64,000 nt of DNA, taken from the IMG/VR virus record IMGVR_UViG_2721755710_000007, positions 11,410 through 75,409 of that record; one strand, given 5' to 3'. The stretch is from a virus (taxonomy: Duplodnaviria > Heunggongvirae > Uroviricota > Caudoviricetes). The position numbers and the translations under genes are program-made. Positions 10,956-25,559 of this stretch are shown here, in pieces. The notes beneath the pieces were generated by a model. It had not been told where the DNA came from, did no database searches, and was given only the letters and a program-made list of their open reading frames with translations. Each line of letters opens with the position of its first letter. The first letter of the stretch is position 1.

Positions 10956-12887
10956 TTATGCGTATTGTTGGATGACGGCCAGAACGTCCGCCACGTTGTG
11001 TTTTGTCTCGATAATCCACCAGTTGCCCGGGAAATCGCTGTTCTTCGCCTTCGCTGGCAGCCAGCGAGCGCCGAATTTTTCCTTGATTGCGTCTTTAGCA
11101 CGGAAAAGAACGCCTTTCATGCCGGACGCCTCCTGAAGCCCAAATACCTCACCAGCGGCGAATTTTGGTGCGTACATCATCTTCAGGTCGGCGGTGGATA
11201 CGCGATAATTCAGACCAAGAGACTGAGCTATGCTGGTGGCATCACCCTGTATTGATGATAACTCTTCTTGTTTCTCGTTTCTGGCGGCAATTTCTTCCTC
11301 CGTGATGTTGCCTAGGGCCAGGTTTATCCGATCAGCGTCGGCCTGTTTCTCTTCATCGGTGCGCCCGGCAAGAACCGTGTTAATTCTCTGCAATATCTCA
11401 ACATGATTCTTGCGCATGCTAAGCAATTCCGGCGTAACCTCGTTAAGGTCCACCAGCCCAAGGATGGCAAGGTCGGAAAACATTGATACCAGGTTGTAGG
11501 TCATGCGATAGCTGAGTTGCCCATAGGCTGATGGCAACTGCACCGCATCCATTTGATAGGCATCCATAAATTTAGAGCCGTCGTTTACGACATCCGCAAT
11601 TGCCGGTGTGATTTTCCCTGTGGTGGCGGCCTCCCTGATTGCTGTTACCCACGATTGAGTCAGCGCGGCGACTGCATGATTCAGATTGGCTTTCCGTTCT
11701 GCTGCAATACGCGCGCTTGCAGCGTCCATTGCCTGCTTGATCTCGTCTTTATTGCTGTAAATGCCAATGGTGCCAAACTGTGCTGTGGTGATCTCATAAT
11801 CTGACGCCCGGAACTCATGGGTACCGAAAATGGCATTGGTGACCTCAAGTTCAGAATCCCCGTTACGAGTAGCCCCCTGGCTTGTTTTCTCCGGCATTCT
11901 GGCGATCGCATCCGCTATTGTCTCCTGAATTGCTTCAGGGGATAGCGTATCTCCGTATGACGCGATTACTTCGCCATAATTGGAGCCAAACAGTTCAGTC
12001 AGGAATACTTCTGCCAAACGGACCTGGCGGTTATTCCCTTCCGACATCATACCAAGCACCCATTTTGCAATTGACGACTTCAGCGCGCCGTCACGGCGAT
12101 CCGGGTAAACCGCATGCTTCAGTGGGTCCGTATAGGTACCAACAAAATCAATGCTATAGCCTGACTCTGTAGTCTGAACGCCGTATGAGTCAGTGATTTT
12201 GATCATGCCGCGCTGCTGGAAACGGTAGAAATCGTCACAGGAAATGATGTCGTTAATCCCGGCGATGGAGACGCCACCACTGATTTTCTGCATAACAGCA
12301 TCTTCATCGGGAGTTACATCCACCTGTTTATCCAGCGTCTTCACATCCCAGTTACCCGATTTGGTGCCTTTGAAGGTAAAGATGATCTCCACGTCTGCGC
12401 GCTGGCTGTCGAAGTCCAGCGACTTAATGCGAACGATATCACCGGCACAATCGTAGTATTGGCCTACACGCCATGAGCGATCGCCGATAACAAGGAACTC
12501 ATTCGCATGGTTAACCAGATCAGGATCAACATCCAGAATGCCTTTATTTATTGCATCCTCCACCAGCGGGCGCAGGCGTTTGATATCCGTCGCGGCCTTC
12601 TGAGTACGGTTCAATAATTTCTCATAGCGGGAGATGGCTTGAGTGATATTAGCCTTGCGCTGAATGGCGCTTTTCAACGACGCGCGATAATGTGCTAACA
12701 ACGTACGGTCTGTGTGATGGACGCTACCCCAGCGGGCCTTCCAGTCTGCATTATCAGCTGCTTTGGCCATTAACTGGAGTGCCATCAGTACCAAGAACAG
12801 GAGCACCTCCCACGCTAATAGACTGGCCCCCTGAATCTCACCGTTCTGAAACCACAACAAAAAAACATCAGGAATAAAAAACACCAC
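10956..12887 (-). CDS. hypothetical large protein (up to 643 aa), first gene of operon; true start probably internal (Met codon at 12785 or 12770)
   Basis: Long ORF; codons 17-23 are encoded by an IS2 IRL remnant so the annotated N-terminus is doubtful; no Walker or methyltransferase motifs seen. Confidence 0.5.
   Translation of the reverse strand: MVFFIPDVFLLWFQNGEIQGASLLAWEVLLFLVLMALQLMAKAADNADWKARWGSVHHTDRTLLAHYRASLKSAIQRKANITQAISRYEKLLNRTQKAATDIKRLRPLVEDAINKGILDVDPDLVNHANEFLVIGDRSWRVGQYYDCAGDIVRIKSLDFDSQRADVEIIFTFKGTKSGNWDVKTLDKQVDVTPDEDAVMQKISGGVSIAGINDIISCDDFYRFQQRGMIKITDSYGVQTTESGYSIDFVGTYTDPLKHAVYPDRRDGALKSSIAKWVLGMMSEGNNRQVRLAEVFLTELFGSNYGEVIASYGDTLSPEAIQETIADAIARMPEKTSQGATRNGDSELEVTNAIFGTHEFRASDYEITTAQFGTIGIYSNKDEIKQAMDAASARIAAERKANLNHAVAALTQSWVTAIREAATTGKITPAIADVVNDGSKFMDAYQMDAVQLPSAYGQLSYRMTYNLVSMFSDLAILGLVDLNEVTPELLSMRKNHVEILQRINTVLAGRTDEEKQADADRINLALGNITEEEIAARNEKQEELSSIQGDATSIAQSLGLNYRVSTADLKMMYAPKFAAGEVFGLQEASGMKGVLFRAKDAIKEKFGARWLPAKAKNSDFPGNWWIIETKHNVADVLAVIQQYA
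12819..12839 (+). mobile_element. 21-bp IS2 left inverted repeat remnant
   Basis: TAGACTGGCCCCCTGAATCTC identical to the IRL of the intact IS2 at 19645; similarity stops after 21 bp. Confidence 0.6.
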
Positions 12888-13385
12888 ACAAACACAGCAC
12901 TGTACCCCCCCTCATAACTGAAAAGCGCCGCCGCCCCCGCCCGAAGGGCGGGAACAACATCGCTTTTAATTATGAATGTTGTAAGTACATTGTCATCGCT
13001 GTCAGTCTTCTGGCTGGAAGTCCTCAGTACACGCTCGTAAGCGGCCCTCACGGCCCGCTAACGCGGAGATACGCCCCGACTTCGGGTAAACCCTCGTCGG
13101 GACCACTCCGACCGCGCATAAAGGCTCTGTCATGGCTGAAAACGGGTATGGCTTAGCAGGGCCGGGGGTGGGTAAGGTGAAATCTATCAGTCAGTACCGG
13201 CTTACGCCGGGCTTCGGCGGTTTTACTCCGGTATCATATGAAACAACAGAGTGCCGCCTTCCATGCCGCTGGCGCGGCATCAGGACAACTGAAGAGTGAC
13301 GGCGCACATTAACATCAAACAGACTTGTTAAGCAGTCTTTCAGGGTGTAATCTGAAGACCTGTTAAATAGTCTCAGAGGTGTGTT

Positions 13386-13637
13386 ATGCCCAGTATCATT
13401 TTGTCTGACACCAGTGCAAGCGTCAGTGAGCTGAAAAAAAATCCGATGGCAACTGTCAGTGCCGGAGAGGGGTATCCTGTTGCCATTCTTAACCGGAATC
13501 AGCCAGCATTCTACTGTGTCCCTGCTGAGCTCTATGAAAGAATGCTTGATGCCTTGGATGACCAGGAGCTGGTAAAACTGGTTACTGAACGCAGCAGTCA
13601 GCCTCTGCATGATGTGGACCTGGACAGTTATTTATGA
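13386..13637 (+). CDS. stbD: StbD/RelB-like antitoxin
   Basis: 83-aa ORF overlapping the toxin start by 4 bp. Confidence 0.75.
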   Translation: MPSIILSDTSASVSELKKNPMATVSAGEGYPVAILNRNQPAFYCVPAELYERMLDALDDQELVKLVTERSSQPLHDVDLDSYL

Positions 13638-13921
13638 CTTATACAGTAAAATTCCGGGATGATGCACTGAAAGAATGGCTCAGACTGGACAAGACCATTC
13701 AGCAGCAGTTCGCAAAAAAACTGAAAAAATGCAGTGAAAATCCTCATATAGCTTCTGCAAAACTACGTGGATTAAAGGACTGCTATAAAATCAAACTTCG
13801 CGCATCAGGTTTTCGTCTGGTTTATCAGGTTATTGATGATATGTTAATTATTGCGGTCGTCGCAGTAGGTAAACGTGAACGCAGCAACGTTTATCATCTC
13901 GCCAGTGAACGGATGAAATAA
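13634..13921 (+). CDS. stbE: RelE/StbE-family toxin (mRNA interferase)
   Basis: 95 aa; ...LRGLKDCYKIKLRASGFRLVYQVIDD...VGKRERSNVY closely resembles recalled E. coli RelE. Confidence 0.8.
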   Translation: MTYTVKFRDDALKEWLRLDKTIQQQFAKKLKKCSENPHIASAKLRGLKDCYKIKLRASGFRLVYQVIDDMLIIAVVAVGKRERSNVYHLASERMK

Positions 13922-14780
13922 TATCCTGGTCAGCACTCTTTCTTACCTGCTTCCATTTTTTCAGTGATTCTTTTCCTGCATGCAGAAAAAAAGCCTACCC
14001 TGTGGGCAGGCATAACAGACAATCGCACAGTCAGTGTTGAAATTAATGATGTCACGCATTATACCCGGTGGATACACAAACCATCCCTGCAAATGCATTG
14101 GCATCCTAATCAACGTCTGAAACAACTGCAATGGCCGGATCTGTGATTTCAGAGAAAGTTATTATGTTTATTGAATATAACCGAAGTGATAAATAAAAGT
14201 ATTATCACCTTTAATATTTATGCTTATTGCGTGGTTTTATCTGGTTATATAAAGCACAGATGTTCTTATTATTTTCTGAAAAATAACCATATGGATCGAT
14301 TTCCCCCACCCAGCCGAAGCGGTTCGGCTCGTTCGGCGTGTCGTCGACACTGAAGCGCTTATCCATTTCGTTCCAGCGGTAAGAGTTGTCGCTGTCGCTG
14401 ACGAATGCCATCGGGTCGCTAAACAGCGTGATCCGCCATGCGATCAAAAAGCGTAAGTGTTTCCGACAGACGAGCCGGTGAAAAAAGTGGTGTGTCTGGC
14501 AATACAGGCATCGTCCCCGAAATGGACGATGCCGTTGAAGGACTGGGGTATGGCAATAAGCCGCTTTATTATCGGATTCAGTGACCGCCTGGACGGTTAC
14601 TTTTGAGAAAAGGCATTTACACACAATCCTAAACAGACTCCTATATTTCAGATTTTGTTATCAACGCATTTCAAATCTCTTAGAAATCATTACTGTCGTC
14701 ATATTTTCCGAGGCAGCTCACCACCTAACTATGTTTTATCAACAATATTTTGTGAAGGATATTTATAATGTAAAGACACA

Positions 14781-17700
14781 TCAGAAACGATATTCCACAC
14801 TCAACATGGCAGATGTATTATGGTATCCATGTTCTCCAAGTTGAATGCCTGCATCAGCCCGGAATGCTACTTCTGGTGTTATCATTCCCACAACACCACC
14901 ATTTATTTCTCCGATATCACGCGCACCATCCTGGTATATACTTACACCATTCATACTGGTGCCGAAAACACGACTATTGTGCAACCAGTGTGCCTCCACA
15001 AATGGTCTGAACGGAACCGCATACCGCGTATTTTTACCGTTTTTGCTGGTAAGCCATGTTCTTGCTCCCAGGCGGGTGAGAATATTTCCGTTACCGGTAT
15101 TTTCAATACTGGTTCCGTTACTTTCATGATATTTGTCTGATTTTACATTCATCCGGACAACCTGAAGCTGCGGCTGAACATACCATTCATGACTTCCCTT
15201 GTAATTGTCGGTAAACTCTCCAGCCTTCCATGAATATCCTGCTTCCAGAGATACCGTAAACCCTTTTGACTTCCATGACTCAGCAGGCAGCCGTTCTCCA
15301 TTTATATGATTATCAAACCAGCTGTATTGCAGCCAGCTATCAAGATAAGAACCATTGTGTGTTTCATCATTGGCATACCATGTTGCATAAAGACCCGCTG
15401 TGTATCCATTCATTCTTCCTTCCGAATGGTATCCGGTGCTCAGGGCATTCGTACTGTTATTATTATGACCATAGCCAGCCATCATACCTGTATGCCAGCG
15501 ATCGGTACCATTCAGGCTCCACTGAGCTATATCTCCCCCTATTAACACAACGTAGCTATTCCCCCGGGTTCTCAGCTGACTACTGTTGTCACGCCAGCGA
15601 TTATGTTTTCCTTTATTATACATCCAGATACCTGCTTCATTTTCTTCTCCTGTCATGTGGCTGATATACAACTCCTGTCCCTGTCGTTCATACAGATTCG
15701 TTACAAACAGATTATTTGCAGCAGCAATACTGGCAACATAGCTACCTGCCTCAGGACGCAAATTATTATCATGGTTTTCCGGTACAGCTTCAGGTTGTGG
15801 TACAGGAATGTCTTTTCTGCTAATCAGATACCAGTTAGTGCTGTTAATCCCCTGACCACGTTTCAGTATGTAATCATAAGCTCCGGCTGTAATACGTTCC
15901 GTCTGAATGAATTCAGCATTATCAGCATTGCCACTGACGTGAATCACTTCAATCCCATTAAGTGTCTCTGCACCAGTACCACCGGCCTGAGTAACAGCGA
16001 CACGGGTACGGCCACTGGCATTACCTTTAATCACCAGACGATCTGTTTTCGAATTGTCACCACCTGTTTCTGTCTGGAGGAGAATAAGTCCATTTCTGCC
16101 AGTGTAATTCCCTCCGACAGTCAGTATATTACCCGGCATATATGTAGTGAGATCGACTATACCACTATTGCTCAGATTTCCTGCAACGCCCCCAAACCCG
16201 GAGAGTTTGCCCTGCTCTTCAACAATGACCTGGTTACTGCCGAGCATCACCGGTGAATCTGCGTTCCCCAGTATCACTGTCCCCTGAATAATATCTGTCA
16301 TCCCGGTCCATTTTGCGTTATCGCTAATGTTCAGTGCACCTGCTCCCGTCTTGCGAACATTACCATAACCACTGATATTGTTGGTAAGCTGCCATGCTGA
16401 TGTACTGTTCAGAGTTAATGTGCCATAGTTATCAACAAAGGCTGTCCCCAGATTATCAGCCGTGGATACAGCCAAATGAGCCCCCTTATTCACGGTAAAA
16501 ACACCGGAAAAATTACGATTATTACCCGTTATATCAAGCATTCCCCCATTTATGTTCAGAGAACCATCCCCTGCAATAGTACCTGCAGATTCTCCTCCAT
16601 TATTCAGTATCAGGCTTCCGCCATGAATGTTCAGCACAGAGCCTGCAGCCGTCAGTAGTTTGCTTATTGTCTGAGGATACCCATTCATATCCAGTTCTGC
16701 GCCACGGGATAAATATAAATACTCAGTCCGACCAAGAGCATCAGGTGCAGCAAGAATTAATACGCCAGATTTAACCTCTGTATTTCCTGTATAATTGTTT
16801 GTTGCAGAAAGTATAAGAGTACCATTACCTGATTTTGTCAGACTTTTGCCGTCCCAGCCATCATATAATAAAGGTGAAAGATTATCGGAAAGAGAAACAC
16901 CTATGTTCAGAGTGGCATCTTTTTCTATATTAAAGGTTCCATATCCCATGCCTTTTGTATTATTCCATCTCAGCATGGAGATCAGTTTGTTATCGTCGTC
17001 ATTTAAAGACGTATAAACATAACTTTCAGCACCTTCTGTCAGTAATACATTGTATTGTACAATGTGACTATTATCAGCGATCGAGATACCTGTGTCTGAC
17101 GACAATAATGTGTAATAGTCCTGAGTCCAGTTCTTAATTGATGTGTCTATATTAAGCCATGAATCACTTTTTAATGTAATAGTATTTGCGTGAACATTAG
17201 CATTTCCTACAGACAGGTTCATAGATGCGTCTTCATCAATACTTATATTTCCGTTAAAAATGGAGTTCTTGCCTGACAGATAAACAGATGAGCCATTCCC
17301 AATCATTAGCCCACCATTAATTGCTGTTGCGTTATTGATGTTTTTAATAATTAATTCATTTGTACCATTAACAGGTATACTAGCTAGTTTAATATCACCA
17401 TTAATCACAGAATCTGAATAAATATCTAATGAATTATACCCGCCAGAAAAAATTATTGATGTATTATAAGCATCTTTTTGGCTATTATATAATCCTGAAA
17501 GATTACCATGATTATTAATATGGATATCTTCTCCATAAACAGAGCAACCACCGTCGGGGCCATATCCCCCCTGAACAATACCGTTATTATTCAAAGTGAT
17601 TTGATTTCCAGAAATAGCATCTCCCCCTTGTTTTATTCCATATCCTCCAGATATCATGTTGTCGTTAGTAATGAAAAGATTACTACCATTAATACCATCA

Positions 17701-18278
17701 CCACCGTTTACGCCATTACCGCCCAATATTCCTCCGGAATTATGCACTGTAATATTGCTACCGGTTACACCGGAACCACCTGTCCCACCTACATCATCAC
17801 CTCCGTATATACTTCTGTAATTATCAACTATAATATCATCCCCGCTTAACCCTGCACCTCCGCTACTTCCTGAGCCACCAAGACCATTACCCCCATATAC
17901 ATTTCTGTAATTGTTTATAGATATTTTGTTGCCACTAACAGCAATTCCACCATTATATCCATCTCCTCCCCAAACACTACCATTATTATTTAGCGTAAAG
18001 TTTTCACCGTAGACACCTGCACCACCGATTGATGTATTGCTTGTTCCTCCTTTGATGTTAATACTGCTTTCAACAGATAGTATATTTTGAGTATAACTTG
18101 TTTTATACGGCACGCTGATATTAAGCGCCGCGTTTCCATCAACACCTGTAATACTCCTGGTTATACTTTTAGGTATACCATTACCATTCAGTTGTATTGT
18201 TTGCGCACCAGAAAAATGAGACTGCACAGAATAAATTATACTGACCAGAAATTGTAAAATTCGTATATTCTTATTCAT
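14781..18278 (-). CDS. autotransporter adhesin (AIDA-I/TibA/Ag43-like)
   Basis: 1165 aa; signal peptide, glycine-rich ~19-aa passenger repeats, C-terminal beta-barrel ending ...SVEYRF; AT-rich. Confidence 0.75.
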   Translation of the reverse strand: MNKNIRILQFLVSIIYSVQSHFSGAQTIQLNGNGIPKSITRSITGVDGNAALNISVPYKTSYTQNILSVESSINIKGGTSNTSIGGAGVYGENFTLNNNGSVWGGDGYNGGIAVSGNKISINNYRNVYGGNGLGGSGSSGGAGLSGDDIIVDNYRSIYGGDDVGGTGGSGVTGSNITVHNSGGILGGNGVNGGDGINGSNLFITNDNMISGGYGIKQGGDAISGNQITLNNNGIVQGGYGPDGGCSVYGEDIHINNHGNLSGLYNSQKDAYNTSIIFSGGYNSLDIYSDSVINGDIKLASIPVNGTNELIIKNINNATAINGGLMIGNGSSVYLSGKNSIFNGNISIDEDASMNLSVGNANVHANTITLKSDSWLNIDTSIKNWTQDYYTLLSSDTGISIADNSHIVQYNVLLTEGAESYVYTSLNDDDNKLISMLRWNNTKGMGYGTFNIEKDATLNIGVSLSDNLSPLLYDGWDGKSLTKSGNGTLILSATNNYTGNTEVKSGVLILAAPDALGRTEYLYLSRGAELDMNGYPQTISKLLTAAGSVLNIHGGSLILNNGGESAGTIAGDGSLNINGGMLDITGNNRNFSGVFTVNKGAHLAVSTADNLGTAFVDNYGTLTLNSTSAWQLTNNISGYGNVRKTGAGALNISDNAKWTGMTDIIQGTVILGNADSPVMLGSNQVIVEEQGKLSGFGGVAGNLSNSGIVDLTTYMPGNILTVGGNYTGRNGLILLQTETGGDNSKTDRLVIKGNASGRTRVAVTQAGGTGAETLNGIEVIHVSGNADNAEFIQTERITAGAYDYILKRGQGINSTNWYLISRKDIPVPQPEAVPENHDNNLRPEAGSYVASIAAANNLFVTNLYERQGQELYISHMTGEENEAGIWMYNKGKHNRWRDNSSQLRTRGNSYVVLIGGDIAQWSLNGTDRWHTGMMAGYGHNNNSTNALSTGYHSEGRMNGYTAGLYATWYANDETHNGSYLDSWLQYSWFDNHINGERLPAESWKSKGFTVSLEAGYSWKAGEFTDNYKGSHEWYVQPQLQVVRMNVKSDKYHESNGTSIENTGNGNILTRLGARTWLTSKNGKNTRYAVPFRPFVEAHWLHNSRVFGTSMNGVSIYQDGARDIGEINGGVVGMITPEVAFRADAGIQLGEHGYHNTSAMLSVEYRF

Positions 18279-18325
18279 ACTGTTTTTTCTTTAGTGATGC
18301 ATTTTTTATCAACCTGGATTTGCCC

Positions 18326-19231
18326 CTATATTTCCAGACACCTGTTATCACTTAACCCATTACTGGCTTGCTGCCGTAGATATTCCCGTGGCGAGCGATA
18401 ACCCAGTGCACTATGCGGATGCCATTCGTTATAATGCTCGAATGCCTCTGCAAGGTTCTTTGCTGCCGTTAACCCGTCTGGTTTGGGCATGACACTGATG
18501 TAGTCACGCTTTATCGTTTTCACGAAGCTCTCTGCTATGCCGTTACTCTCCGGACTCCGCACCGCCGTGTTCTTCGGTTCAAGCCCCAACATCCGGGCAA
18601 ACTGCCGTGTTTCATTAGCCCGGTAGCATGAACCATTATCCGTCAGCCACTCTACTGGAGACGCCGGAAGCTCGTTGCCGAAACGGCGTTCCACCGCTCC
18701 CAGCATGACGTCCTGTACTGTTTCACTGTTGAAGCCGCCCGTAGTGACCGCCCAGTGCAGTGCCTCACGGTCACAGCAGTCCAGCGCGAACGTGACTCGC
18801 AGTTTTTCTCCGTTATCACAGCGGAACTCGAACCCGTCAGAGCACCATCGCTGATTACTTTCTTTCACAGCCACTCTGCCGGTATGTGCCCGTTTCGATG
18901 GCGGTACAGCGGGTTTTCGCTCAAGCAACAGCGCATTCTGGCGCATGATCCGGTAAATACGTTTGGCATTGATCGCAGGCATACCATCAAGTTCGGCCTG
19001 TCTGCGAAGCAGCGCCCATACCCGACGATAACCATACGTGGGCAGCTCTCCGATAACATGGTGTATACGGAGAAGCACATCCGTATCATCTGAGTGACGG
19101 CTGCGGCGACCATCTTTCCAGTCATCGGTTCGTCTGAGAATTACGTGCAACTGCGCACGCGACACCCGGAGACAACGGCTGACTAAGCTTACTCCCCATC
19201 CCCGGGCAATAAGGGCGCGTGCGCTATCCAC
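18326..19231 (-). CDS. insD: IS2 OrfB transposase
   Basis: 301-aa IS3-family integrase-core ORF. Confidence 0.9.
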
Positions 19232-19554
19232 TTTTTTGCACGCCCGTATTCAACGGCTTCTTTAAGGAGTTCATTTTCCATCGTTTTTTTGCCGAGCAGG
19301 CGCTGGAGTTCTTTAATCTGCTTCATGGCAGCAGCAAGTTCAGAGGCAGGAACGACCTGCTCTCCTGCGGCCACAGCAGTAAGACTTCCCTCCTGGTATT
19401 GCTTGCGCCAGAGAAATAACTGGCTGGCTGCCACACCGTGTTGCCGGGCAACAAGGGAGACCGTCATTCCCGGTTCAAAACTCTGCTGAACAATAGCGAT
19501 CTTTTCCTGTGTAGTACGCCGTCTGCGTTTCTCCGGTCCTAAGACATCAATCAT
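19189..19554 (-). CDS. insC: IS2 OrfA
   Basis: Starts [24 protein letters not shown]; overlaps OrfB as in IS3-family frameshift arrangement. Confidence 0.85.
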
Positions 19555-19759
19555 CTGCTCTCCAATGACTAGTCTAAAAACTAGTATTAAGACTATCACT
19601 TATTTAAGTGATATTGGTTGTCTGGAGATTCAGGGGGCCAGTCTAATTTATTATAGAGTATATATATGTACTGCGTTTAAATCATGAAGACGACAACCTG
19701 TTTTACATAAATTATTCCTAAGTATTTTTCCAGAGAAGACCTAGGTATAATGATGTGCA

Positions 19760-20527
19760 GGTAATGACTCCAACTTATTGATAGTGTTTTATGTTCAGAT
19801 AATGCCCGATGACTTTGTCATGCAGCTCCACCGATTTTGAGAACGACAGCGACTTCCGTCCCAGCCGTGCCAGGTGCTGCCTCAGATTCAGGTTATGCCG
19901 CTCAATTCGCTGCGTATATCGCTTGCTGATTACGTGCAGCTTTCCCTTCAGGCGGGATTCATACAGCGGCCAGCCATCCGTCATCCATATCACCACGTCA
20001 AAGGGTGACAGCAGGCTCATAAGACGCCCCAGCGTCGCCATAGTGCGTTCACCGAATACGTGCGCAACAACCGTCTTCCGGAGACTGTCATACGCGTAAA
20101 ACAGCCAGCGCTGGCGCGATTTAGCCCCGACATAGCCCCACTGTTCGTCCATTTCCGCGCAGACGATGACGTCACTGCCCGGCTGTATGCGCGAGGTTAC
20201 CGACTGCGGCCTGAGTTTTTTAAGTGACGTAAAATCGTGTTGAGGCCAACGCCCATAATGCGGGCAGTTGCCCGGCATCCAACGCCATTCATGGCCATAT
20301 CAATGATTTTCTGGTGCGTACCGGGTTGAGAAGCGGTGTAAGTGAACTGCAGTTGCCATGTTTTACGGCAGTGAGAGCAGAGATAGCGCTGATGTCCGGC
20401 GGTGCTTTTGCCGTTACGCACCACCCCGTCAGTAGCTGAACAGGAGGGACAGCTGATAGAAACAGAAGCCACTGGAGCACCTCAAAAACACCATCATACA
20501 CTAAATCAGTAAGTTGGCAGCATCACC
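19760..20527 (-). mobile_element. IS1 copy 2
   Basis: 768 bp identical in ORF content to copy 1 (insB 19775-20278, insA 20197-20472); no 9-bp duplication. Confidence 0.95.
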
Positions 20528-20563
20528 CTTAAGAAGATCGCCCTGAAATTCATCAAATAATCC

Positions 20564-21286
20564 TTAGCGGCGTTTACCAGACAGTTCCGCAGCAATATAA
20601 GCCTGCACGCTTTTGTACTGTTTTACCTTTTCGATAAACTCATCGGGACTGTAAGCACCTTTTACACGACGGGATACGTTAAGTGTTTTCTTAACCCGTT
20701 CGATATACATGTTGAGACTTCGAATAATATTGTGCGCCATTACGTTGTAATCGCTAACCGGTAATTGACCCAGAGAGTTGAATTTGTACATCTGGGTCAG
20801 AAGGTTGTTCATTTCAAAGATGTGCTTATAAAAACGCATTGTATTTTGATTGTTGAAGTTTAACTGGACCGATTCAAATCGGAACGGAGAAAACTCAGTT
20901 GATGAGAAGAATGGATCACTTTCATCAACGTGAATAGTGGCGATATGATGTTCCAGATTCTCCTTCATTAAATTATTTTCGTCGTGCAATTCATTAAACC
21001 AGTCCTGAATTGCCTGCACCAATTCGGGGTGCCTTACCGCATTAACCGTCCTGAATAATGATGAAATAGCAATACTTACATCATCAAAGCCTCTAATTAC
21101 GGAACGATTCCGAGCCGTAAGGAAACGGTTAAAATCGGGAGTACCTGGCTTAATGGTTACTGTGGCCATGCCGTAAAGTTCATTTTTACTTTGCACGACT
21201 TTTCGGGTATTGTCAGATGCCTGAGAGGTGCGGGCATTTACATCAGGAGTTTTCTGCTCGGTTTCATTTATTGATACGTCGGTCAT
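20564..21286 (-). CDS. hypothetical 240-aa protein, second gene of two-gene operon
   Basis: ORF; start overlaps upstream gene stop by 4 bp; no recognised motif. Confidence 0.5.
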   Translation of the reverse strand: MTDVSINETEQKTPDVNARTSQASDNTRKVVQSKNELYGMATVTIKPGTPDFNRFLTARNRSVIRGFDDVSIAISSLFRTVNAVRHPELVQAIQDWFNELHDENNLMKENLEHHIATIHVDESDPFFSSTEFSPFRFESVQLNFNNQNTMRFYKHIFEMNNLLTQMYKFNSLGQLPVSDYNVMAHNIIRSLNMYIERVKKTLNVSRRVKGAYSPDEFIEKVKQYKSVQAYIAAELSGKRR

Positions 21287-21768
21287 TGTGCCACCTCATA
21301 TTTTGAGTATTTACGGATTTTCCGTCCCAGTTTGATATATGCAGCATGATAGAATTCAAGTAATTCTCTGTAGGGTTCCAGTAATCCCTCCGTTTTTTCG
21401 ATCATTTCATATTCCCAAGACGCGTGATTAACAAAGCAGCTTTTTGAATATTTTCCGTTTTTCATCGCAGAAACCCGTTTCGACATATAGCTGGGTGCCC
21501 TGGTTTTAAACGGACTGAACTTATGCCAGGTGATAGTGACTTTTTTCGCATTACCAATTAATTCTAGTTTCGGTGCATACGAACCCAGATACTCACGTTT
21601 TAGTGTATTGCTAGGCCGGGGTAAATTAATCTCCAGATGATTCCGTTCTTTCCACTCGATCCAGTAATTTGTACACAAGTCTTCAGCCTCCTCCCGCAGA
21701 GCCTCGATTTGTGAACGCATTAAGCTGCGCGATAATTCAAGTGACTTTATTAGTTTCGAATTAGACAT
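21283..21768 (-). CDS. hypothetical 161-aa protein, first gene of two-gene operon
   Basis: ORF; lysine-rich; no recognised motif. Confidence 0.5.
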   Translation of the reverse strand: MSNSKLIKSLELSRSLMRSQIEALREEAEDLCTNYWIEWKERNHLEINLPRPSNTLKREYLGSYAPKLELIGNAKKVTITWHKFSPFKTRAPSYMSKRVSAMKNGKYSKSCFVNHASWEYEMIEKTEGLLEPYRELLEFYHAAYIKLGRKIRKYSKYEVAQ

Positions 21769-22035
21769 GTGACCTCCTGATGTGAAATCACTATACCGAA
21801 GTGGTTTTTATTTTTTTTCACAAACAGGACTTTTTTCAGTGATTTTTTTCTGAGAATTATGAGGGGCGTGTCGTTGGTGCGATGCATACCGATAGTGAAT
21901 AACACCAGATGAGCTCGGGAACGGCATAGCGGGGTGTACTTATGTTCGGCAGAAAAGTAGCTTTTTCTGCAATGGGTATTCCTGATCCGGTGATTTGAAA
22001 AGTGCTGTTTTACTTACTAAGTTATACATATATCT

Positions 22036-22197
22036 AGTGCCACTTTTTAATCAAAAGTGACCCTAGGTTTTTTGCGCATAGTGCCACTTTTTAAAAAAGT
22101 GACCCTATGTCCTGTCTACATAGGGTCACTTTTCACAAAGAAGTGACCCTATGTCGAGGCTCCATAGGGCCACTTTTCAGCAAAAAGTGACCCTATG
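22036..22197. repeat. array of eight copies of a ~14-bp motif (AAAAGTGACCCTATG) in alternating orientation
   Basis: Copies at 22036, 22054, 22080, 22097, 22121, 22141, 22163, 22185 forming four or more inverted-repeat pairs. Confidence 0.8.
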
Positions 22198-22780
22198 TAA
22201 TAGCCATTGTTAATCAATCGGAAAAATATTCATGCTAGCTCGCTCTTATCGCTAAGGTTATTGCTGCTTTCTGCCGATAACAGTGCAAGTTTTGCGATTT
22301 TTTTAAGCGCTTCACAGTTCGTTAGCAAGCTCAGTTTTTTTTGATAAAATTCTGGTCAGTTTGTTTAAAAAGTGTTACAAGTAAGGCGAATGGTTGAATG
22401 GTTAGTTTTAAGACTCAAATCGGCAGTATTAAAATTCCAAAAGTAGCTTTTCATACTTCAAAAAACCAAACTTTAATTTCATGTAGAAGAGTTGTACTAT
22501 TGTATTGACTCAAGGACAATCCGACATGTCAGAATCAGATAACATAACGCGTAACTATTACGTACCGAGGTTTCGATTATTCGTAGTTACCGTGCATTCC
22601 TAATGTTATTGCCTATCCATGATCTTCTTCGTATCAATCAGGGTCTCCACTCTTGCAACGCCGTCTATTTGGAGACGGATTTGGGACAATGACTGATAAT
22701 GCATTTGAAGTTGAAACTCGTCCGGGAAGTTTCCTCGTTCCACGTTCTTTAGGCAAAGAGATTTCCTGGGATAATTTTTT

Positions 22781-23311
22781 ATGGCTGTTGTCGATGGTGA
22801 CACTAACGTTATTCGAGAATATGACAGTGACGATGCTGACTTCGGTATTTACAATGCTGGGGAAAAAGTTACTTTACTGTGTGGCCGGGAAGACTTTTAT
22901 AATCCGACAAAAATTCAGCAGTTACGCTCTAAGTGTGTAGATATACAAAATGATTACTTTATTCAAATCTTCTTTATGTCAATGCTTGCACCTGAGTTTG
23001 TCAGCATATTTTTTGGATTAAAGCCTGCCACCGCAGATGCAATAAAAGATGTTGGCGTTTCATCACTTAAAGCAATTAACGATGTTGTTCTCTTTCCGCG
23101 AACAATTGCCTTTACGCCAGGACTGGGGGATGATAGCACTACGTTAAAATCTAAAGTATTCGCCAGGGCATACGAATTATCTGCCGACATTCGTTTGGGT
23201 AAAGTTAGTGATGACTTAATGGAACTACTGCGTTACGACACTATGTTTACGTGTCACCGTCAGGATGTGTTTAACTCATTAGCAAATAAAGTGCTCTTGA
23301 AGGATTATTGA
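22781..23311 (+). CDS. hypothetical acidic 176-aa protein
   Basis: ORF only; stops 7 bp before IS1 copy 3. Confidence 0.3.
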   Translation: MAVVDGDTNVIREYDSDDADFGIYNAGEKVTLLCGREDFYNPTKIQQLRSKCVDIQNDYFIQIFFMSMLAPEFVSIFFGLKPATADAIKDVGVSSLKAINDVVLFPRTIAFTPGLGDDSTTLKSKVFARAYELSADIRLGKVSDDLMELLRYDTMFTCHRQDVFNSLANKVLLKDY

Positions 23312-23317
23312 ATATGG

Positions 23318-24085
23318 GGTAATGACTCCAACTTATTGATAGTGTTTTATGTTCAGATAATGCCCGATGACTTTGTCATGCAGCTCCACCGATTTTGAGA
23401 ACGACAGCGACTTCCGTCCCAGCCGTGCCAGGTGCTGCCTCAGATTCAGGTTATGCCGCTCAATTCGCTGCGTATATCGCTTGCTGATTACGTGCAGCTT
23501 TCCCTTCAGGCGGGATTCATACAGCGGCCAGCCATCCGTCATCCATATCACCACGTCAAAGGGTGACAGCAGGCTCATAAGACGCCCCAGCGTCGCCATA
23601 GTGCGTTCACCGAATACGTGCGCAACAACCGTCTTCCGGAGACTGTCATACGCGTAAAACAGCCAGCGCTGGCGCGATTTAGCCCCGACATAGCCCCACT
23701 GTTCGTCCATTTCCGCGCAGACGATGACGTCACTGCCCGGCTGTATGCGCGAGGTTACCGACTGCGGCCTGAGTTTTTTAAGTGACGTAAAATCGTGTTG
23801 AGGCCAACGCCCATAATGCGGGCAGTTGCCCGGCATCCAACGCCATTCATGGCCATATCAATGATTTTCTGGTGCGTACCGGGTTGAGAAGCGGTGTAAG
23901 TGAACTGCAGTTGCCATGTTTTACGGCAGTGAGAGCAGAGATAGCGCTGATGTCCGGCGGTGCTTTTGCCGTTACGCACCACCCCGTCAGTAGCTGAACA
24001 GGAGGGACAGCTGATAGAAACAGAAGCCACTGGAGCACCTCAAAAACACCATCATACACTAAATCAGTAAGTTGGCAGCATCACC
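23318..24085 (-). mobile_element. IS1 copy 3
   Basis: 768 bp; insB 23333-23836, insA 23755-24030; same orientation as copy 2; no duplication. Confidence 0.95.
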
Positions 24086-25559
24086 TATCAATGGCCTGGG
24101 CAATACTTTCCGTCGAAAATGATTGCAACATATTGCCGATATCCTCAAATCCAAGTGATTTGAGAGCCTCACCAATGGCGCTGCTAATACCAGATACCAG
24201 TCCCCCCATATCAAGAACATTAGCTAACGTATAAGCGGCTTTTTGCTGGAATGATGGATCTTGTCCTGATTTAAGCCCAAACGCTCGACGTTGCGCTTCT
24301 GTATCATTCCAACCGGTTACCGCATCATAAATACCTCCAGCCACTGTGCCGACTAGGGGAATTGCGCGTAACGCCCCTTTACCAACTGCCTTTAATCCAA
24401 GTTTACCTGCTGCCCGGGCAGCCAAATCTCCGCCTTCATGGGCGAGAGTCTTCTTGCCACCACCGCGTAGCATTCCTACAAGTTTCTTTGCCCCCAGAGC
24501 GCCAAAAGCGAGTGCTCCAGCTTTTTTCAGCATGCCACGCCCCATTAACAACGACGCGACGCCACCGGCCCCCTTCCCTAACAGGCTAAATAGTTTGGAC
24601 AGCAAGCCGCCCTTCTTTTTCCCGGTGTTTTTGGCTATCTGATCAAGGGCACGGAGAATCTTGTCATTGCCCTCTTTAATTTCGCTGGTCTGCTCCTGAA
24701 GTTCCTGAACCGTCCGTTTTTGGGTGTTAACCTGAACGACATCGGCACTATTTTGCGATTTACGCCTAAAAAAACCTTTTCTACGGCTGTTATCGTCGTT
24801 GCCACGAATCACATCGGCAATAGACTTTCTGGCACCATTAAGCGATCCACCAACTTCTTTTGATATCCCGCCAAGCTCCTTCCCTGCTGCCCACAATGGA
24901 CCAGCAACGGCATAACCTAACGCATCGACGGCACGAGTCTCTGAAGGGTTACCTATGCCTTCAGCTACTTTTGACAGTTTTTTTAATAAACCTGATTCAG
25001 CATTTAGACGCTCATCATCCTCTTTGCGCCTGGCCTTTTCAGCACGTTCAGCACGGGCATCTTCCGCTGCGGCCTTACTCCCTGACTTTCCAATAAAACG
25101 ACCACGCGCATCGCGTTGGTTTTGGCTTTTTTGCGCACCGCCTTTTTGACCGAACATTTCGCGAGCGTGTTCGGCTGCTTCGGTCCGTTGCGCCTTTACA
25201 TCTTCTGTTATAGCCTTCTTGCGTCGTTTTTTACCCTTTCGCGTAGTTGATTTGGCCTGCGGTTCCTGTAGAGCAACATCCTCCTGAACTACACGAGAAA
25301 CGTCCCCTAAATTAAGCCGTTTCATTGCCTCAACAATAGGGTCCACTGATGGCGCATTGGCCACAAAGTCTGGCCGGGAATTTTCGATTGTGCGATTTAA
25401 TGCCGACACACTGCGAGAGACAGGATCAACTGTAGCAACTCGCCCACCTTTCAAATCTTCAACGGCTTCCCGAATACCTGCAAGCTCTTCCAGCTCTTTT
25501 GCGCTGGCGGTTTCAACCGTCCTTATCACATCGTCAATGTTGGCGTTTTTTCTTTCCAT
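24081..25559 (-). CDS. Gly/Ala/Lys-rich phage structural-like protein; 3' end abuts IS1 and may be truncated
   Basis: 492-aa ORF whose stop codon lies inside the IS1 terminus. Confidence 0.45.
   Translation of the reverse strand: MERKNANIDDVIRTVETASAKELEELAGIREAVEDLKGGRVATVDPVSRSVSALNRTIENSRPDFVANAPSVDPIVEAMKRLNLGDVSRVVQEDVALQEPQAKSTTRKGKKRRKKAITEDVKAQRTEAAEHAREMFGQKGGAQKSQNQRDARGRFIGKSGSKAAAEDARAERAEKARRKEDDERLNAESGLLKKLSKVAEGIGNPSETRAVDALGYAVAGPLWAAGKELGGISKEVGGSLNGARKSIADVIRGNDDNSRRKGFFRRKSQNSADVVQVNTQKRTVQELQEQTSEIKEGNDKILRALDQIAKNTGKKKGGLLSKLFSLLGKGAGGVASLLMGRGMLKKAGALAFGALGAKKLVGMLRGGGKKTLAHEGGDLAARAAGKLGLKAVGKGALRAIPLVGTVAGGIYDAVTGWNDTEAQRRAFGLKSGQDPSFQQKAAYTLANVLDMGGLVSGISSAIGEALKSLGFEDIGNMLQSFSTESIAQAIDR

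Follow-up and report, generated by a model that had tools for sequence, protein, structure and literature searches.

An IS1-bracketed gene pair in a P1-derived plasmid is very probably a decayed IncHI oriT-mobI region encoding a predicted AcaB-like protein

Two small coupled genes enclosed by two IS1 copies in a P1-like element raise the question of what they encode and where they come from. In the window, i.e. the whole stretch of 64,000 nucleotides that was analysed, the left IS1 copy (19760..20527, minus strand, 768 bp; insA/insB on the minus strand; ends GGTAATGACTCC... and ...GGCAGCATCACC) and the right copy (23318..24085, minus strand, 768 bp) are 100% identical and in direct orientation, and they enclose a segment of 2,790 bp (20528-23317), in agreement with the original prediction of two direct IS1 repeats around 2.8 kb. 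The gene arrangement was also correctly predicted: a 161-aa gene (21283..21768, minus strand) is translationally coupled to a 240-aa gene (20564..21286, minus strand), stop and start codon overlapping as ATGA, and the inverted-repeat array placed about 270 bp upstream consists of eight 11-mers and starts 267 bp upstream of the first ATG. The function of the pair had been called unknown. Our data suggest that the segment very probably derives from the Tra1 region of a conjugative plasmid of the IncHI1 group and has since decayed; the surviving parts would be the transfer origin and the two leading genes of the 'H' operon for DNA processing.

A megablast search with the 2.8-kb insert matched 1,431 plasmids in PLSDB, which fall into three groups, and returned no match in 50,697 phage records. 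E. coli plasmids match with at least 99% identity, IncHI1/IncHI1B conjugative plasmids match over the full length with 85-90% identity, and hundreds of IncHI2 plasmids including R478 match at query positions 1492-1651 only, which is exactly the repeat array. The closest conjugative relative in PLSDB is pLEC-7c0d with 89.5% nucleotide identity, and R27-like plasmids reach about 85%, defining the window lineage as a separate one; the copies with at least 95% identity, found in roughly 170 plasmids, all appear to be in non-conjugative plasmids. The gene order of intact IncHI plasmids, read from pLEC (IncHI1B), R478 (IncHI2), p109/9 (R27-like) and R27, is array, mobI, the 240-aa gene, mobH (the traI relaxase gene), traD (coupling protein; traG), an unnamed gene and a DUF4400 gene, and in the opposite direction a 266-aa gene (trhR), a 170-aa gene (trhY) and then trhF/trhH/trhG. 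All of these plasmids, as well as distant relatives, keep mobI followed by the 240-aa gene, so that the pair does co-occur in other genomes as the original prediction had proposed to examine. Counting locus tags on the R27 maps makes R0122 the traH or mobI gene, R0121 the 240-aa gene and R0123 trhR, which agrees with the R27 transcriptome paper: there R0122 is entered as 'traH, relaxosome protein', R0121 belongs to the same H operon but carries no name, and at 25 C the two genes are induced 8-12 fold. The two genes in the window occupy the R27 traH/R0122 and R0121 positions beside oriT and are IncHI conjugation genes rather than an operon of unknown function.

The borders of the segment show what has been lost. 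Abutting the left IS1 end, ATGAATTTCAGGGCGATCTTCTTAAG represents the first 26 nt (8 codons and 2 nt) of the MOBH relaxase gene traI (20528..20553, minus strand), and in relatives the 3-kb mobH/traI gene starts at the matching position. On the other side, trhR is a pseudogene (22526..23311, plus strand), which compared to the intact 266-aa trhR of pLEC, p109/9 and R478 carries a 13-bp deletion and two 1-bp deletions resulting in three frameshifts; the 176-aa ORF at 22781-23311 is the tail of trhR only. It is followed by the first 4 nt (ATGG) of trhY (23314..23317, plus strand), where relatives read on as ATGGCTAAAGTC... and the window as the right IS1. The identity of these parts, their synteny and their decay are established. 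An Rfam scan of window positions 19000-25000 returned no match.

The original prediction had seen no motif in either protein, but the 161-aa protein matches Pfam MobI PF19456 with 74 bits (cut-off 26.6; E 1.4e-20) across profile positions 1-115 of 116. It is 82% identical to R27 TraH, and its homologues carry PF19456, named MobI(A/C). On the basis of the family match and the TraH identity we assign the gene as traH, encoding a MobI-family relaxosome accessory factor. It has an AGGAGG sequence 6 nt ahead of its ATG. No other gene lies between it and the conserved array, which also holds for R27, R478, pLEC and the distant relatives. The literature names R27 TraH as the MobI-like factor in MOBH11 systems, and papers citing Lawley et al. 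2002 place mobI of R27 directly beside oriT. In A/C plasmids MobI self-associates into dimers, determines the choice of oriT and brings in the MOBH relaxase; for IncC MobI, two-hybrid analyses and domain swaps showed that it is needed for transfer and binds the TraI C-terminal domain. A MOBH (TraI_2) relaxase on the same element, encoded by a full gene in the relatives, is absent in the window apart from the 26 nt of traI, which bears on the completeness of the system and not on the identity of the protein. Mutants of R27 traH are reportedly transfer-deficient.

The array (22035..22195) is built from eight sites that match AAGTGRCMCTA exactly and alternate strictly between the strands, with a spacing of 20/24/18/24/20/24/20 nt, and the motif occurs nowhere else in the 64-kb window, even with one mismatch allowed. 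Folding of the array as single-stranded DNA is far more favourable than that of shuffled sequences (z = -7.97). It lies in the 758-bp traH-trhR intergenic region, for which a four-way alignment across IncHI1B, IncHI1 and IncHI2 shows the array and a second block (22338..22385; invariant run T570 to G617) to be nearly invariant while the surroundings drift. In p109/9, of which 200 of 207 kb were scanned, the motif is present eight times in the order and spacing of the window, confined to the traH-trhR intergenic region and absent from other tra promoters. Being a single cis site in p109/9, the array is more in line with an origin of transfer than with a general tra operator, and it most likely represents the core element of the IncHI oriT. 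The R27 oriT was reportedly mapped to the traH-trhR interval, and this intergenic region, when cloned, was reportedly mobilised by R27; to our knowledge no nick site has been described for such IncHI-type systems, which we count against the assignment. The second block is located between the array and trhR, contains AAAAAGTGTTAC, follows the consensus TTTTTGATAAAATTCTGGT.AGTTTG.T.AAAAAGTGTTACAAGTAAG and holds a degenerate copy of the array motif; it is a candidate nick region or promoter/operator. Distant relatives, whose proteins are 24-52% identical, also have an alternating inverted-repeat array upstream of mobI with a differing motif, i.e. AAAAGTTACACTGTG in L009 (5073-5240) and CTTTAGCTAACTTTT in L010 (5043-5287), with 44- or 54-nt periodicities. 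Such a change of motif is as expected of sites co-evolving with a specificity protein, and these arrays should be useful for working out the recognition code of MobI-type or AcaB-like proteins.

The 240-aa protein is 91% identical to R27 R0121 and is called 'hypothetical' in all sources. It belongs to a small family of 21 representatives, all unannotated, as found by an exhaustive profile search of 1.84 billion proteins, and its gene is always located between mobI and the TraI_2 relaxase gene, down to relatives with 22-27% identity. Searches against Pfam, NCBIfam and PADLOC gave no meaningful match, sequence and profile searches against the PDB gave no significant match, and PF08900 (AcaB) did not match the protein or 15 family members at E values up to 1. 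PF08900 is named 'AcaB', yet the match of IncC AcaB to this model does not go beyond E 0.033 (14 bits, cut-off 27), so that name and model may correspond poorly. In PHROGs, near-identical families of 'unknown function' exist for both window proteins (phrog_18898, E 3.6e-111; phrog_20548, E 1.5e-143); both proteins are absent from all records of the phage collection, and the PHROGs source is presumably a P1-derived element treated as a prophage.

An AF2 model of the 240-aa protein built with 13 homologues (pLDDT 71, pTM 0.63) shows a helical core together with a short strand (residues 41-45), and its N-terminus is disordered. In a Foldseek search with this model AcaB was the only hit below E 0.001 (E 4e-5, probability 1.0, target TM 0.67), and the protein is predicted to have an AcaB fold. 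The link at the sequence level is weak but consistent: AcaB ranked fifth when the R0121 family profile was searched against the PDB with hmmsearch (E 0.23), and hhalign of the R0121 family against the AcaB-family alignment gave P 3.5e-4, a probability of 37% and 123 co-linear columns. Among the positions best conserved in the R0121 family are G39, M40, P47 and F52, which flank the N-terminal strand, fitting a DNA-binding ribbon as in ribbon-helix-helix (RHH) proteins. The R0121 homologue is therefore predicted from the model to be an AcaB-like, RHH-type DNA-binding protein. AcaB is an activator of IncC plasmids with structural similarity to RHH factors, which switches on acaDC and is itself activated by AcaCD. 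A tentative and rather unlikely extension of the fold prediction is that the R0121 family constitutes the IncHI (MOBH11) counterpart of AcaB, which would be an RHH-type protein made from the TrhRY-activated H operon, would bind the traH-trhR region, perhaps at the eight-site array, and would feed back positively on trhRY and/or help relaxosome assembly at oriT. If true, the thermoregulated switching-on of IncHI conjugation would gain a component that has so far been missing, and an incoming IncHI helper could be perturbed or exploited by the relic in this P1-derived plasmid. Nine of the 14 Tra1 ORFs are reportedly essential with R0121 not among them, which would set R0121 apart from AcaB. A literature search for R0121 with AcaB and for AcaB with IncHI found no paper joining the two.

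How did this segment reach its present place? The flanks of the cargo are P1/P7-like with 95-98% identity, making the host replicon a P1/P7 derivative. P1 homology breaks off within darB (about 12772) and sets in again within sit (24086), so that 12773-24085 is foreign cargo, and about 30 kb of P1 are missing here (OP279344 coordinates 7725-38373). The broken darB and sit genes together with the missing 30 kb suggest that the element is probably a defective phage. Of darB, the 3' part only is left (window 10956-12887, a 643-aa ORF), and of sit the 5' (N-terminal) 492 codons only (24081-25559), its ORF running from 25559 to 24081 into IS1. The other cargo between the darB remnant and the left IS1 (13386-19599) consists of a Phd/YefM-RelE/ParE pair at about 13386-13921, a 1165-aa autotransporter gene (14781..18278, minus strand) and an IS3-family element (18326..19599). 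The order differs in NZ_LR883966, where the Tra1 remnant has the autotransporter gene and the IS3 element at its opposite flank, with their orientation reversed, which implies an inversion or rearrangement. The only record with the exact locus, NZ_CP010146, is typed as IncY and as non-mobilizable by MOB-suite. The available text of the survey by Pfeifer and Rocha 2024 classes it as 'Plasmid' among the P1-derived plasmids, reports a relaxase gene or oriT for 30 of 38 P1-derived plasmids and none for all but two P1-like phage-plasmids, and describes how phage genes were lost and oriT or mob functions acquired; the general phenomenon has thus already been described.

Comparison with related E. 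coli plasmids suggests how the IS1 brackets arose. The relaxase gene traI at one end and the activator gene trhY at the opposite end would have been lost through IS1-mediated deletions. Three E. coli plasmids, L001 (NZ_LR883966.1), L003 (NZ_CP042894.1) and L008 (NZ_CP044294.1), have traI and trh genes cut by IS1 at positions other than those in the window, and L003 and L008, which keep more of Tra1, share two of the three trhR frameshifts. These three stand for many E. coli plasmids of 90-160 kb, typed IncHI1B or IncY and 'mobilizable, MOBH', in which mobH is found only as IS1-truncated fragments of 1.1-1.3 kb beside the module, and the MOBH relaxase call in such plasmids probably reflects a pseudogene.

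The IS1 copies invite the reading as a composite transposon that carried two genes between replicons, and the term potential translocatable unit is formally true of any segment bracketed by two identical direct IS1 copies; nothing, however, shows that the unit travelled as a transposon. No target-site duplication of 8-9 bp is present at the outer ends (...GATGTGCA and TATCAATGG...) or around either IS1 copy, and each IS1 junction is contiguous in one of 72,556 plasmid records only, i.e. NZ_CP010146.1, so that the 2.8-kb unit with its IS1 brackets was found in no other plasmid among these records. The absent duplication, the single-record junctions and the longer Tra1 flanks with other IS1 positions in related plasmids support that the brackets formed in place by IS1-mediated deletion or recombination, and we reject the travelling transposon as very unlikely. 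A P1-like replicon with genes adjoining IS1 also recalls the IS1-associated isaA/isaB genes of P1, which the original prediction had mentioned. This identity is rejected as practically excluded: neither at the DNA level nor by tblastn is there a match in the 50,697 phage records, P1 and P7 included, and the IS1 copies sit at the broken ends of the darB-side cargo and of sit rather than at an intact P1 IS1 locus. Superficially, small coupled genes behind a repeat array resemble par or toxin-antitoxin loci, and the pair might accordingly serve toxin-antitoxin, anti-phage defence or plasmid-maintenance functions with the array as operator, centromere or iterons. Against this stand the absence of PADLOC or Pfam matches to defence or toxin-antitoxin families and of Walker or ParB-type domains, the MobI family membership of the first gene, the relaxase and coupling-protein genes that come next after the pair in every relative, and the ParAB/ParM and Rep loci that IncHI plasmids have elsewhere. 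We consider a toxin-antitoxin pair, a defence system, and a partition site or iterons highly improbable and reject them, including the phage-defence and toxin-antitoxin behaviour for which the original prediction had suggested functional tests. Homology to the P1 backbone or to a plasmid-maintenance family had been named as the finding that would speak against the original prediction; what we found is close to that in spirit, namely homology to a characterised plasmid family, but one of DNA transfer.

With the segment read as an IncHI Tra1 remnant, its present role is most likely that of a relaxase-less oriT-mobI module that would be mobilisable only by a co-resident IncHI helper, or it is simply a relic. 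Alone, the module would be unable to start transfer and would probably be barely expressed, since activation of the H operon requires both TrhR and TrhY. An IncHI helper could supply TrhRY, TraI, TraG, TraJ and the H-pilus system, and oriT-traH would then let the plasmid be mobilised. IncHI transfer requires low temperatures. An A/C oriT-mobI module alone makes a vector mobilisable by a helper with a TraI matching MobI, and relaxase-less islands do likewise. Against mobilisation, the plasmid itself provides neither the cognate relaxase nor either of the two activators. A scan for a sigma-70-like promoter upstream of traH on the minus strand found none and remained at background level, so that expression may be nil; transcription reading through from the right IS1, which has its genes in the direction of traH, is no more than a possibility. 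A matching helper is undocumented, as the nearest conjugative plasmid in PLSDB is just 89.5% identical. Mobilisation of the module in the real world appears conceivable to us, with a chance somewhat short of even.

Alternatively, the segment may be an inert relic, a silent leftover of successive IS1 deletions kept only through the youth of the lineage, a reading to which we give nearly even chances. The deletion of traI and trhY, the three frameshifts in trhR and the missing promoter-like site upstream of traH all support it, and the differing IS1 cut-points in traI and trhY of sister plasmids suggest continuing erosion. However, none of the sampled copies has a damaged array or a broken ORF of the pair, four plasmids share one accession for the 240-aa protein, and all three indels fell into the roughly 790-bp trhR; the probability that this happened by chance, with trhR and the two genes as possible targets, is about 0.06, which is suggestive only. 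The contrast to the decay of trhR is weak evidence for a retention of the two genes and the array.

As a summary, the finding is largely ordinary, the transfer module being a known one of IncHI plasmids, in a decayed state, and its P1-derived carrier belonging to a class already described. Modestly new are the IncHI identity of the gained oriT in a plasmid typed as non-mobilizable and the AcaB-like fold predicted by modelling for the conserved, uncharacterised R0121 family. A plasmid typed 'non-mobilizable' still has an intact IncHI-type oriT and a MobI-type specificity factor, and mobility predictions for this common E. coli plasmid family may be too low where IncHI plasmids co-circulate. For R0121, kept between mobI and traI in all IncHI-type systems, the AcaB fold prediction provides a testable hypothesis for the regulation of IncHI transfer or for relaxosome assembly.

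Compared to R27 Tra1 (Lawley et al. 2002; H operon of Gibert et al.), gene order, coupling, the spacing of the eight-site array and the divergent trhR all match, whereas the window version is 2.8 kb only, has lost traI, traG, traJ and trhY, carries a frameshifted trhR and resides in a P1-derived IncY plasmid instead of an IncHI plasmid. Relative to the P1-derived plasmids of Pfeifer and Rocha 2024, the IncHI type and the decayed state of the gained transfer function are details not specified in the available text of that survey. The predicted AcaB-like protein differs from AcaB itself (PDB 6N8A/6N8B; Hancock et al. 2020) by a sequence identity of just 11-13%, by about 30 additional residues, a disordered N-terminus and a conserved C-terminal QYKSVQAYI motif, and by gene location, acaB lying near traN in IncC and the 240-aa gene beside the oriT-traH module. 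With IncA/IncC plasmids, SXT/R391 elements and relaxase-less islands of the MGIVchHai6 type the module shares a MobI-family gene directly beside oriT and transcribed away from it, and like the oriT-mobI modules of islands and test plasmids, which work through the TraI of a helper, it has no relaxase of its own. In contrast to these IncA/IncC-type modules, the window module belongs to the MOBH11 (IncHI) and not to the MOBH12 branch, and in the IncHI branch an extra gene, encoding the predicted AcaB-like protein, is always located between mobI and traI.
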